DNA of 64,000 nucleotides, taken from the NCBI RefSeq assembly GCF_988243305.1, contig NZ_OZ547136.1; one strand, given 5' to 3'. How positions within the stretch are numbered: position 1 is the stretch's first letter; every line of letters begins with the position of its first letter. Position numbers: made by a program. This document shows, piece after piece, positions 24,901-30,900 of the stretch.

Positions 24901-27900
24901 CATCTGAATATCACGCATCAACTTTCTCCACAAAATCAGGACAGCACACCAATCGCCAGCGCGCGATCGATAAAACGAAATATCAGCTCCAGTTGGGAAC
25001 CATACTTCTCTTCAAATGCCACGGTATCCGCATGTAGTTCGTCATGGTGTTTTCTGCACAAAGGCAACACAAAAAGGTCATGCGCTTTTGTACCCATTCC
25101 ACCCTGACCATGACCAATCAGGTGATGAGGATCGTCGGCTGGCTTACCACAACATGCACACGGCTGCGTCTTAACCCAGCGCGTGTACTTTTCATTAACC
25201 CAGCGACGACGTTTTGGGCGTAACATAAAAGACTCCGGCGACTCCGGATCCACTTTCAGCGCCAGCACCTTTTTCGCTTTATCCTGGATGATGCTGGTGG
25301 CAGGAACCGAAGGCACAAGGTCACTTTCCCGGGTGACAGACGGCACAACAGGCTTCGGTAATCTCAGTGCCTTACGGGCTGCACTTTCCGGTAAGGCATC
25401 CGCCAGGTCATTACGAATCAGCCACCAGCACAGTTCCGGCATTGTCACAACGTGACTGTCATCAAAACCGAGATCCCGACGCACAACAGACAACACCCAG
25501 CGGGCACAGTTATCCGTTGCCATTGATTCCAGCCGTTCCGTGAACTGATCGCGCAGCTGGTTATCGCAGTGCCAGCACAGACGGATTGCACCCGGAGCGT
25601 GTCGCATTGTGGTCATGTTCTCGCTGTGCCAGTCGGAATGAGGCCACTGGCAGCCTTTTTCACGAAGTAACCAGCTTTCAAGACATTCCACGCCACCAGC
25701 ACGACGGATCACTGCCTCATTGCGGAACACGGCCCGAACGGCAGGATCATCCGCCAGCGGTTGTGATGCCGCCGGAACGGCACCACTGGCGAAAGATGAA
25801 TAACGTTCCGGCTCAGGCTCCAGCAGGACACGCCCCTGCATAAACAGGGGCATCAGCTCTGAACCGGGCCTGAACAATACAATCCCCATACGCGGGGCAA
25901 TTTCAGGGGTCAGCAGTGCTCTCACGGTCACCTCAGCAAACGATATTGAATGCATACAGAGAAAAAAACTCAGTCATCACGCAGTAAACTCCTTCACCAG
26001 TATTTCAAACTGGCTTACCTGTCCTTCCAGTTCCTCCACGCAATCCACCAGCTCATCCACCGCCTTTTGTGTACGGTGTTTTGCCTGCAGCAGATCACGA
26101 AGCGCCGGAGTAAGCTGCTTGCGGAGCGTATCTTTTGCCACGCTCGTTTTTTCCATCTGTTCAGCACAACGAAGCATCTCCTGCGCCTGCCGACGAAGTT
26201 GTTCCGGTGAAACAGTGATTGTTCTGTTGTTCAAAATAAACGCTCCGTTTTACTGCCCGACATGCGGTTATTGCTGTATCTGCGCGGATTGCCCGGCGTC
26301 ATGGGTGTGGAAAGAACCCGGGCACTCTCCTGATCCACAGGCAGAAAATGCCCGTTATGAAAACGCCGGTAAATGGTACCCAGCGTGCCATTACGCTGTT
26401 TCGTGATGTTGATTTCTGCTATGCCTCTGGCCTGAGTTTCCGGGTTGTATACCTCATCCCTGTAAAGCATCAGAATGATGTCGGCATCCGCCTCGATTTC
26501 CCCGGAGTTTTTCAGGTCCGAGTTCATTGGGCGTTTATTGGGTCTGGATTCCACGCCGCGGGAGAGCTGGCTCAGAGCAATCAGCGGAAAACCGCCGGAT
26601 TTTGCCAGGCTTTTAAGTCCCTTTGAGATTTCCCCCACCGCAAGGTCGTGACGCCCCGTGCTGCGGGTTTTAATCAGGCCGAGGTAATCGACCACCACCA
26701 GCGCCGTTTCCGGGTGTTTCATCCGGTGGTGCTTCGTGGTTGCACATATCTCATCAATGGTCAGGTTTGCCTGGTCCACCATCCAGATATTACGCCCCGT
26801 CATTCGTCCCACGCCCTGCGTGAAACGCGCCCAGTCTTCATCTTCAAAACGGGCAACAGACTTAAGACGGGATACCGGCATTCCACCGGCAGCAGACACC
26901 ATACGTTCACCAATCTGGATGTTCGCCATCTCCATGGTGAACAGAAGCACGCCATGCCCCTGCTCAGTCACCTTGTCGATGATGTCCAGCGCAAGTTCGG
27001 TTTTCCCCATCGAAGGACGGGCGGCAATGAATACCAGGTCTCCGGGCTCCATACCGCCCGTTTTTGCGTCCAGTTCATCAATACCGGTCATCAGCGCCCT
27101 GGATTTCTCCAGTCCCTGATTGCGGCATTCAACACGGTCGACCACTTCCGGAAGGACATCATCAATGTGAACCGGCTGAATGACGCCCTTTCCGGTCGAC
27201 AGTGAGGCCATCATGTTCTGCACATCCTTCAGGGCATCCTCGGCTGCTTCACAGGTATACGCATCACGTAAATTCTGTAATGCTTCAGTCAGTGTTTTTT
27301 CTGCATCGCGCAGTGCGGCATTGCGCCGCAACGCTGCGACATAGTGCTCCAGTGAAGACTTCACCCAGGTTTTGCGTCCGGTGTCGGTAATCACCGGGGC
27401 AAGTTCCGGCATCTCATTGCACAGCAGTACGGGGTCAATGACGCCGGATATGCGAGCCTGTCTGCAAATCCCCGCGTAAATATCCCGGTACTGACGCACA
27501 AAAAATACATCCGCCGGAAGTGTGGCCAGAATATCCATCACTTCCGGATCGGCCCCACGCAGAAAAAACGCACCGATGACAGCGCCTTCCAGGTCATCGT
27601 TACGCCATGCCGGGGTGTTCTGGCTGGTCATGCGGCAACACCTCCGATACGAGAACGGTAGCTGGGCCAGTTAAACGACAACCAGTTGCGCCCGCCATCG
27701 GTGATCCTGTCGGCAATCCGGGGACTGATGAACGCCCACAATTCTTCCGGTGAAAGATTGCTGATCAAGATAGTTGGCAAAATACCCTCATACCGGGCAT
27801 TGATAATTTCCTGCAAAATGGCCATTTCAGCCGCACTGCCAAACTGAACGCCGACTTCGTCGACAATCAGCAAATCCAGTGACGCATAATGCTCAATGAC

Positions 27901-30900
27901 GTCATCCGCTGTTTTTTCACTGTCATTCCGCCAGCAGTTTTTCACAGCCCGGGTAAGGCGCATCACGTCGGTGATCTCCACACTGGCCAGATAGTTACGG
28001 ATGATGTGTTTTGCCATTGATACCGCCAGATGATTTTTCCCGGTACCGCAACTGCCGGTCATAACAAGACTGGTACCGTTCTCCAGCATATCTGGCCAGT
28101 TCTCCGCATAGCGGCGACAGGCCGCAAGATTTCTGGCTGCGTCAGGATTAACCTCCAGATAATTATCAAACTCGCAGTCCCGAAAACGCAGAGCAATTCC
28201 GGCGTTATCAGTCAGTTCTTCCGCCTTGAGGGACGACAGTTCCATGGTCAAATCACTGGCCTCAGCGATCAAGCAGTCAGGGCAGCATGAAATTTTTTCT
28301 CTGTCCTCGCCATTACGATCGATCCACACCAGTATATGCGTACGATATTTACCGTGTTTTTCGCAATATCCGCGACCTTCACGCATCAGGCAGGAACGAT
28401 AAGGCCATGGCTTTTCGCCCTTCTGAGCAAATGCAATCTCTGCCCGTAACTCATCCATTTCTGCCCGTAACTCATCCATTCGCGCCTGTAGTCTTGTTTG
28501 TTTCTCACGTTGGTCAATCGTCATCATCGCTGTCACCTCAGAATGTCAATTTGTTACTGGATTTACCGAATTTGTCAGACATGGCTCCCAGGCCAGCCAG
28601 GACATCGACCTGTCGCTGTCGCCCACCTCCGTGAGCGGCTGGCTGTTGCCAGTAATCTTCGAAGTGACGATCGGGTCCAAAGAACGTCGCAGCCTGCTTC
28701 ACGAACTGTGTGCCGGTATTTCCTGTAGCACGTACCCAGGCGGCATACCGCTTCACGCCATCAAGCATGGTCTCCGGTTTTATTCCCTCCCTGATACGGG
28801 CTTTCCAGGCTTTGAAGGCCGCTGACTTGGAATTGCCACCAGCACGTTTGGGATATTCCTGCCAGGCCTGTTCAAATTCCGGTGAATATTCCTGTCGGGC
28901 AGAACGCGCAGACGCGTCAGCGGATGCATCAATAGTGTTTTTAGTCTCCGTTGTAATCTCTGTAGTAATCTCTGTATTTGTATCAACATTCGGCGTATCC
29001 CCTGTTCCGTTATGACGTCGGGGGGTGTTCCGTTTTAACGTAATAGCTGTATCGCTGATTGCATTATTGCTGTTACTTTCTGGCGAAACAGAAGAAGGTG
29101 TGGTGATGGCCGCAATTGCCTGTGGGTTGATCCCGACAAACAAAATATTGCTGCATTTCACCCCATCGAGCATTTCCACCGTGCGTAAATCCAGAGTAAT
29201 AAACCCTGCATCGCGCAGACGCTTCAGCGCATCTGCGGTTTCCCTTTTCCCGAAACCAAACTGCTCAGCAAACGCCTGGTAGCTTCTTTGCAGTTTGTCG
29301 CCCTGAAAACGCTTGCGATATCCCAGCAACGCTCCGGTGTGCTCATCCCTGACCTCTGTCGGGCGGTACCAGTAAACGATCTCTGAAAGCAGAGCGATAG
29401 CCGTCGCATCCGGACGCCCACTGGGTAGTCGAATATATTTCCACCAGTTCGCAGGTGTAACATTGCCGGAAATATTAATTTGACCAATAGCCATAACTTC
29501 CGGTGTGGGGGCGTAACGGCTCATACAACCTCCTTCCGCGGCATGAGAATTGTGTAGCCACGCGCAGGTTGTAGTCGGGCTTTTGCATCAATAGTAAGCG
29601 TTGCAATTTTTCGGATATGAAGATAACCAGCTCTTTCCAGTGCCAGGGTTTCCCTGAATATCGCTTGCTTAGAACAACAGCAGAAATCAGCAAGCACCTG
29701 ATGATCAATAACTCTCTCGCCTTCACCGTCTGAAGAACCCGACATCAAAACACGCAACATAATTAGGCGCTGAATCGGGTTATCGAAAGCACATCCGCAC
29801 ACAAACTGAAAACAGTTCACGCCACACCTCCCAGACGCTTAAACATTTTTCCAGACAGAAATACCGCCAGAGGGTAACTGATGGTGTAGCTACGCCCCTG
29901 TAGTTCGCACACGACTTTCTGGCTTTCAGCGTTGACTAGGCAAACCCGCAGAACGTGACCGTTGCTGGTGGCGAACCACTGCCCCACACGGGGGCAACGG
30001 TTGTATCGGTGATACAGGGAATTAACGATGTGGCGGATCATGGACGCACCTCCACCGTAGTTACGTATTTAACCGGGCTACCTTTCATTGAGATGGTTTC
30101 ACACATCTCTGCCGCTTTCAGTTCCGCTGTTTTTCTGGATTTATAGCGACGGTGCCAGACAGATACATCCGTGCGAACTGATACATCGTTTCTGTATTCC
30201 GTAGTGGAGATGATGATTTCGTAACTAATCATGGGCGAACCTCCTTGTCAGAACCATTCAGCCTGGAATCAACAAGTGCAGCGCCAAAAACAGCATCACC
30301 AACACGGTCGTACAGTTTGCTAGCCAGCGGAGATTCAACGGCCTTAAGCATTGGATAAAGCTGGCTTGTCCAGATTTGATGGATTTCACGCAAATGCAGG
30401 TATACGCCTCTGGCGTTTCGTGCGACAGCTGACATATCAGACGCATCGGCACCTGATAAACTCTTCTCCATCAGGTTAAAGGCGTTGATGTATGCCTCTT
30501 TGAACCGGGCTGCACGTTTGCCAGTAAAGCCCATAGCAAGGAACGCGAAGCCATCACGGGTGATTTGATAGCAAGGTAGTTTGCGGCCTGTGCAATCGGT
30601 GTAATCACTCACCGAAAAATTGCGGGCAGTGAATGATGCGGAGCATTCAAGCGTGCGGATCTTTTTCAGTACATCGTCATGACGCTTGGAGAAGAAGTTG
30701 GCAACAGCCAGGGATGAAGTAACAGCCTGACCATCAACGATGGCAATTTCAGGTTGAGTGAGGGTTGGGATCGTAGCCATGATGGCAGCCTCCGTTGACT
30801 GTGGAAAACTTCCACCACCGGAGCTGCGAAACTCACTGGTGGCAGACTGAACAGGGTTCGCAGTACCGGCGTCAACGGAGACCGGCGAGCCTTTCGGCTC

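Follow-up and report, generated by a model that had tools for sequence, protein, structure and literature searches.

An initiator, a DnaC-like loader and a DnaB-family helicase in the predicted replication cassette of a lambdoid prophage

Introduction

Phage lambda recruits the host DnaB helicase through its P protein, and the lambda origin, made up of repeats plus an AT-rich tract, lies within gene O. The lambdoid early operon of phage P22 (gp18/gp12) contains a DnaB-type helicase of its own and no separate loader gene, and SPP1 has a phage helicase that uses the host primase and polymerase, together with a protein, G39P, that is not AAA+. In this study, we analyzed a 64-kb stretch of DNA (RefSeq assembly GCF_988243305.1, contig NZ_OZ547136.1), hereafter the window, whose positions are used as coordinates throughout. 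An earlier note, made from the sequence alone, had read positions 26231-29524 as a self-contained replication module composed of an initiator, a DnaC-like loader, and a phage-encoded DnaB-like helicase. Our analysis indicates that these three genes very probably form the replication cassette in the early-right region of a lambdoid E. coli prophage at yecE. The prophage encodes its own DnaB-family helicase, and the contrast that the note had drawn with lambda therefore holds.

The cassette resembles each of the well-described systems in part. Like lambda O/P, it lies between cro and Q in the early-right operon, whereas its loader is an AAA+ DnaC homologue and not a P homologue, and its initiator lacks Phage_rep_O. 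The logic of SPP1 G38P/G39P/G40P (origin-binder, loader, and phage DnaB-type helicase) is similar. Both partners of the E. coli DnaB-DnaC complex (PDB 6QEL/6QEM) have homologues in the window, and both of these homologues score below the NCBIfam equivalog cut-offs. The gene order of the window is found in L17-L18-L19 of phiP27, a phage carrying Shiga toxin (Stx) 2e, in whose record (AJ298298) L18 appears as 'putative replication protein DnaC' and L19 as 'putative helicase'. The cassette is thus an ordinary one: modules of this kind are annotated, very common, and already known. Among the replication proteins of phages, DnaB-type helicases are the most frequent (PMC4889955).

Gene content and distribution of the cassette

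An open reading frame (ORF) scan showed that three intact minus-strand ORFs fill the interval 26231-29524 exactly (Table 1). Searches against Pfam, PHROG, NCBIfam, and PDB and by fold gave the proposed identities for the initiator, loader, and helicase, and none of the three was assigned to an unrelated family. The loader stop and the helicase start share 4 nt (ATGA), and the stop of orf99, the ORF preceding the initiator, overlaps the initiator start by 4 nt in the same manner. Together with the overlap at orf85, these junctions suggest a translationally coupled block. For the loader, the ATG at 28527 is a more likely start than a GTG at 28536, which would give a protein of 302 aa (27628-28536), because the ATG is the RefSeq start and is preceded by a GAGGTG Shine-Dalgarno sequence 7-8 nt upstream. 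The term "self-contained" is appropriate only in part. Origin recognition, helicase loading, and unwinding are covered by the predicted functions of the cassette, whereas a scan of ORFs from the early and immunity regions gave no match to a primase, polymerase, or single-stranded DNA-binding protein. The prophage therefore presumably depends on host DnaG and Pol III.

The 3.6-kb region matched 408 of 5,426 complete E. coli genomes (163 with at least 80% query coverage and 56 at ≥99% identity) and 24 phage records, including phiP27, ASU11, PhiR49_2, and approximately 20 Stx1a/Stx2a phages. In a tblastn comparison over 91 loci, the initiator C-domain, loader, and helicase were colinear in 91/91, and the order was also kept in three extra loci from Citrobacter, Yersinia, and Salmonella (94/94 in total). 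Loader homologues with 53-60% identity are present in prophages of Klebsiella, Serratia, Pantoea, Yokenella, Citrobacter, Yersinia, and Salmonella, where an initiator gene precedes them and a gene for a 451-459-aa DnaB-family protein comes next, overlapping the loader gene by 4 nt.

Alternatively, the module might be a decaying remnant of a defective prophage that has lost its replication function. Some copies do show damage: in three near-identical IMG/VR loci (L015, L052, and L054), the helicase match covers 374, 424, and 291 of 466 residues, respectively, and is shortened or shifted, which suggests that the gene is disrupted in these prophage copies, and several genes elsewhere in a near-identical prophage of strain 20AR0479 are frameshifted or partial. 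In the window, however, all three ORFs have their full length and keep the Walker and arginine motifs, and the prophage retains integrase, CI, Cro, Q, lysis, and terminase genes. The occurrence of the region at ≥99% identity in the 56 genomes and of the same cassette in sequenced phage records (phiP27 and ASU11) also speaks against decay, and we consider this explanation quite improbable.

The proteins of phiP27 and of Stx phages such as Stx2_EH2201, ASU11, and PhiR49_2 are 81-94% (loader), 91-98% (helicase), and 86-97% (initiator C-domain) identical to those of the window. These phages differ in having another type of initiator N-domain, in lacking orf99, and in encoding loaders without a seven-residue duplication (292 vs 299 aa). 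In the records LC567829, LC567819, and LC567835, the DnaC-like gene (879-891 bp) is named 'DNA helicase' and the 1401-bp DnaB-like gene 'replication protein', and these two product names look swapped; the identification of the genes helps to correct swapped or missing names in database records.

Phage Stx2_14040 (LC567818), which is among the matches, is the reference of the published 'Eru7' type. In Europe, the replication type of the Eru7 Stx2a phages has been reported to be more widespread than any other among Stx phages, and the authors stated that nothing is known about their replication proteins (PMC8951638). Their typing used the Rha genes next to cI ('Eru6/7/9' types; PMC8951638). Judging from the gene content of the region, these Eru-defining genes are not the real replication genes, which are predicted to lie further downstream. 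The identification of the initiator, loader, helicase, and candidate origin therefore offers defined targets for work on Stx-phage replication or on its inhibition. A modest interest remains in the putative zinc/hairpin N-domain of the loader, in the conserved orf99, and in the presence of the cassette in this widespread Stx2a phage type.

DnaB-family helicase

The helicase matches the DnaB C-terminal domain (DnaB_C, PF03796) with an E-value of 6.3e-74 over residues 180-426, above the Pfam cut-off. The match to the DnaB N-domain (PF00772) is weak (1.2e-5; 25.7 bits against a cut-off of 23; residues 12-89), indicating that this domain is divergent. The protein also matches phrog_19, 'DnaB-like replicative helicase' (3.9e-115; PHROG product names are annotations). 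Its alignment with E. coli DnaB spans residues 15-429 (2e-63) and includes the Walker A motif ARPSMGKT, the DY(L) Walker B region, and a SRxxExRxxKRPxxSDL segment. The scores are below the NCBIfam equivalog cut-offs for TIGR00665 (4.6e-92; 309 bits vs 385) and for the phage_DnaB model TIGR03600 (279.5 vs 498.65), and the protein is therefore a family member and not an orthologue of the chromosomal gene. By its domain content, it is a DnaB-family (SF4) replicative helicase with predicted helicase activity.

DnaC-like loader

The best Pfam family for the loader is IstB_IS21 (PF01695, 4.1e-14), and the protein matches phrog_50, 'DnaC-like helicase loader' (1.4e-87). Residues 96-299 align to residues 44-242 of E. 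coli DnaC (6qel_G, 3.9e-29), with retention of Walker A (GTGKNH), Walker B (LLIVDEVG), RIADR, and the C-terminal FNWxSYRSR. The AlphaFold2 (AF2) model has a predicted local distance difference test (pLDDT) score of 87, and its top fold matches are 6qem_G and 6qel_G (template modeling (TM) score 0.71-0.73, E 1e-13 to 2e-11), followed by IstB (8q4d_E), Aquifex DnaC, DnaI, and DnaA. The loader is not a DnaC equivalog (NF005931, 3.7e-36; 124.9 bits against a cut-off of 357), and the NF005931 alignment covers only residues 97-299 (DnaC 45-243), the N-terminal 95-110 residues forming a different domain. From these matches, we classify the loader as a DnaC-type AAA+ protein of the DnaC/IstB/DnaA clade with predicted loading activity.

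The Pfam name and the presence of the IstB structure among the fold matches would also suit an IstB-type transposition helper of an IS21-like insertion sequence (IS) element. No IstA transposase or IS ends are present nearby, however, and the score against the NCBIfam IstB model (NF038214) is 65 bits, far from the cut-off of 200, whereas the DnaC model gives 125 bits. E. coli DnaC is the best match in both sequence and fold, and the gene is in constant synteny with the initiator and helicase genes in prophage early operons. The missing transposase neighbour and the sub-cut-off IstB score effectively refute a transposition role, which is almost certainly wrong here.

The N-terminal region of the loader was described in the earlier note as Cys-rich and as containing a heptapeptide duplication. 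Five cysteines (46, 55, 81, 82, and 85) are indeed present, and only C55, H58, C82, and C85 are invariant among 31 loader homologues, so that three of the five cysteines belong to a specifically conserved CxxH...CxxC motif. By this motif, the module is a putative zinc-binding one. The model of the full-length protein and that of residues 1-112 agree (pLDDT 87-88). In these models, a helix at residues 4-36 (pLDDT >90) is followed by a three-stranded beta unit carrying the four putative ligands and by a helix at residues 83-109 antiparallel to the first, the beta unit capping the helical hairpin. This hairpin of approximately 110 residues with the CxxH...CxxC module takes the place of the short N-terminal domain of DnaC. 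No solved structural relative of the N-terminal domain was found. The module is common to a wide clade of DnaC-like loaders from proteobacterial phages, including those of E. coli, Hafnia, Burkholderia, Ralstonia, Vibrio, and Pseudomonas.

The duplication is a perfect 21-bp x 2.0 tandem repeat at 28439-28480 (Tandem Repeats Finder, 100% match) that encodes MDELRAE twice, as residues 17-30 inside the first long helix. It lengthens this helix by exactly one heptad, or approximately two turns, and the coiled-coil register would therefore be preserved. The duplication is absent from phiP27, from the Stx phages, and from all 30 other aligned homologues (292-297 aa). The 299-aa loader allele forms an exact cluster with 416 member sequences, occurs in 43 of the 80 closest IMG/VR loci, and is found with more than one type of initiator N-domain. 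The alignments indicate that the duplication is a lineage-specific allele and not a feature of the family.

A tentative and rather doubtful proposal combines two ideas: that the loader N-domain is a structurally uncharacterised, zinc-dependent helicase-binding domain unlike the N-domains of DnaC and Bacillus DnaI and, separately, that origin recognition is split between orf99 and the initiator.

Initiator, orf99, and candidate origin

The full-length initiator matches phrog_270, 'replication initiation protein' (3e-75), and its C-terminal part matches phrog_1701, 'DnaD-like helicase loader' (4.9e-39), as well as several 'replication protein' phrogs. Matches to 'replication initiation O-like' phrogs are weak (7e-7). 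Phage_rep_O was not found in a Pfam search at E ≤10, which returned only a weak HTH_36 match (0.027). RefSeq names window-type initiators 'hypothetical protein'. On the basis of these matches, the protein falls among phage replication initiators or DnaD-like replisome organisers, with a predicted N-terminal winged helix-turn-helix (HTH) domain and a C-terminal interaction domain.

Protein alignment revealed at least four unrelated types of N-domain joined to one near-invariant C-domain of approximately 130 residues, and DNA homology to other phages ends at ~28975, within the linker part of the initiator gene. The C-domain is elsewhere fused to HTH_36 or Phage_rep_O (PF04492) N-domains, and the N-domain of the window type is elsewhere fused to the DnaD-like PF07261 or PF09524 in proteins named DnaD or 'replication protein'. 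The C-domain also adjoins DnaC-like loaders in Bcep22 and Shigella phage 75/02 Stx, both without the helicase, where it is ~57% identical to that of the window. These comparisons show the initiator to be a mosaic, in which the N-domain is swapped between phages and the C-domain travels with the loader. The resemblance to lambda O lies in the two-domain architecture, the variable N-domain, the C-domain paired with the loader, and the candidate origin inside the gene, and by this analogy the initiator reads as an exchangeable origin-specific head attached to a loader-specific tail.

The candidate origin is located in the linker between the two domains. Two 16-bp iteron-like repeats, ACGTTAAAACGGAACA and ACGTCATAACGGAACA, lie at 29003-29041 with 23-bp spacing and are followed by a 12-bp x 2.7 AT-rich array (28945-28976), which coincides with the GC minimum of the initiator gene (0.37 at 28920-28979). 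The repeat motif has only two sites at ≤2 mismatches in the 64 kb and three more at 3 mismatches. The same motif is repeated at the same place in the linkers of Yersinia, Salmonella, and Citrobacter orthologues of the same N-type. In initiators of other N-types, this place is taken by multi-copy repeats of a quite different sequence, such as the five copies of phiP27. The linker repeats and the AT-rich array are therefore a candidate for a lambda-style origin.

The winged-helix-like orf99 matches the N-terminal part of phrog_4617, 'replication initiation protein' (2e-29). Its N-terminal part is HTH_36-like, and in the PhiR49_2 initiator it has a 33% identical counterpart (E 8e-6), the N-terminal HTH domain. 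Orthologues with 55-63% identity occupy the same position in Serratia and Pantoea prophages, and a CCCSKQ motif is invariant. orf99 assorts independently of the type of initiator N-domain and is missing in many phages that share the loader and helicase; it may serve as an accessory protein that binds the origin or DNA. The possibility that orf99 is the fossil N-domain of a domain swap was discarded because of its conservation in Serratia and Pantoea and the invariant CCCSKQ.

Target of the loader and points against the proposed cassette

DnaC-like AAA+ loaders directly follow an initiator in Rac (YdaU/YdaV), Shigella phage 75/02 Stx ('Eru4'), Bcep22 (gp27/gp28), and Dewey. In none of these four is the loader followed by a DnaB-like gene, and the Dewey genome as a whole contains no such gene. 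The loaders of Rac (YdaV) and 75/02 lack the zinc module, whereas those of Dewey, yong1, and Bcep22 have it. A Rac-like module was ruled out for the window: YdaV resembles the window loader in the AAA+ domain alone (27% identity), the initiator is not related to YdaU, and Rac lacks the helicase.

Several observations weigh against the proposed cassette. The initiator has no Pfam, NCBIfam, or PDB sequence match, and a literature search for experimental work on phiP27-type replication proteins found none. Regarding the origin, just two iteron-like copies are clear in the window, both of them within coding sequence, so that their conservation could reflect the peptide TLKRNTP and not a DNA site; the 12-bp array is just moderately AT-rich (GC 0.37). 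The loader module (CEKHG...CPxC) also occurs with an upstream initiator in Escherichia phage Dewey, Hafnia phage yong1, and Bcep22, and tblastn with the window helicase gave no match in the whole Dewey genome or in the 3-kb flanks of yong1 and Bcep22. The loaders of these three phages presumably act on host DnaB.

The true target of the window loader might likewise be host DnaB, either recruited to the phage origin or sequestered, while the phage helicase loads itself or has a separate role. P22 gp12, which works without a dedicated loader, provides the analogy, and the AAA+ domain of the window loader is closest to that of E. coli DnaC. Against this, the 4-nt overlap between the loader and helicase genes is always present in the subfamily, and the two genes remain adjacent from E. 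coli to Yersinia, Serratia, and Pantoea despite identities of 53-57% (loader) and 47-67% (helicase), a pattern expected of a cognate pair. This invariant overlap and co-divergence favour a loader that acts on the phage helicase, and we regard a host DnaB target as unlikely.

The zinc N-domain was also considered as a marker of loaders dedicated to a phage helicase. This idea was rejected because Dewey, yong1, and Bcep22 have the module without a helicase gene, and it is also contradicted by LESphi2-type Pseudomonas phages, which have the helicase and whose loaders align only from residue 111.

Proposed replication pathway

We propose a replication pathway for the prophage based on the cognate loader-helicase pair. 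A single translationally coupled operon would be read from the Cro side through Rha, Rha/Ash, small ORFs, orf99, initiator, loader, helicase, orf85, DUF968, and Q. The initiator would bind type-specific repeats via its exchangeable N-terminal winged-helix domain; the bound repeats are probably those in the linker of its own gene beside the AT-rich 12-bp array, comparable with lambda ori. Its conserved C-domain would then recruit the DnaC-like loader, as suggested by the strict co-occurrence of this domain with DnaC-like loaders. E. coli DnaC is recruited via DnaA, whereas the window loader would be recruited via the phage initiator. The N-terminal hairpin/zinc domain of the loader would grip the phage DnaB-family hexamer, open the ring, and deposit it on the unwound strand; we infer these steps from homology with the E. 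coli DnaB-DnaC complex. The phage helicase would subsequently work with host DnaG primase and Pol III.

Prophage setting and neighbouring genes

The features of the cassette and its surroundings are listed in Table 1. A promoter and terminator scan of positions 24000-33000 found promoter-like sites to be no commoner than in shuffled sequences and nothing informative inside the module.

Table 1 Positions of the replication cassette, its predicted domains, and neighbouring features in the window
Feature	Position	Strand	Remarks
Initiator	28538-29524	-	328 aa
Initiator, N-terminal DNA-binding domain (predicted)	~29105-29524	-
Initiator, linker	28934-29104	-
Initiator, C-terminal domain	28541-28933	-
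Candidate origin	28945-29041	-	In the linker of the initiator gene
Iteron-like repeat motif	within 28930-29110		ACGTNNAAACGGAACA; candidate initiator site
Loader	27628-28527	-	ATG start, 299 aa, DnaC-like AAA+
Loader, N-terminal domain	28198-28527	-
Putative zinc module	28273-28365	-	C55-x2-H58...C82-x2-C85
Loader, codons of the duplication	28438-28479	-	MDELRAE twice
Loader, AAA+ domain	27631-28197	-
Helicase	26231-27631	-	466 aa, DnaB family
Helicase, N-terminal domain	~27365-27598	-
Helicase, RecA-like C-terminal domain	~26354-27094	-
orf99	29521-29820	-	99 aa, winged-helix-like
orf85	25977-26234	-	85-aa helical ORF; start overlaps helicase stop
DUF968/YdfU protein	24936-25955	-	C-terminal HNH-like motif; between replication cassette and Q
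Q	24535-24933
Two Rha-family genes	30229-31080, 31189-31938	-	One with N-terminal Ash domain; between cro and replication genes
Cro-like gene	32380-32652	-
CI-like repressor	32780-33475
Integrase	39439-40752	+	Arm-DNA-bind_2 + Phage_integrase; adjoins shortened yecE (DUF72)
Integrase and DUF72 (yecE-like) gene, joint span	39439-41504	+
Porin gene	23204-24346	+	Full length; between Q and tRNA/lysis region
Three tRNA genes	22193-22438	-	Arg-tct, Arg-tcg, Met-cat; downstream of Q
617-aa ORF	19850-21703	-	DUF1737, SASA (sialate O-acetylesterase-like), DUF6645

Directly 3' of the helicase gene, orf85 matches phrog_2565 (unknown function; 4.8e-30). It is found in this position with 66-100% identity in every E. 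coli-type locus reaching that far and was not detected in the Klebsiella, Serratia, Pantoea, and Yokenella loci. The DUF968/YdfU protein matches phrog_96, 'HNH endonuclease' (3.7e-177), and is present in most, not all, related phages.

The DUF72 match of the yecE-like gene next to the integrase starts at profile position 22. This suggests that the prophage is inserted in yecE, like the 'PPyecE' and 'Stx2_..._yecE' phages among the matches. The gene at the Cro position is a better match to Pfam 'YdaS_toxin' (1.6e-12) than to P22_Cro (7.3e-5).

The porin gene (Porin_1, 3.7e-153) is on the strand opposite to the phage late genes, and its real start is probably internal because a 20-residue extension precedes the typical MKKLTV signal peptide. 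The same trio of tRNA genes is present at the same position in phage PhiR49_2, whereas phiP27 has Ile and Arg tRNAs there. The 617-aa ORF is intact in the window, and the near-identical prophage of strain 20AR0479 carries a counterpart that has been annotated as a pseudogene with a frameshift.

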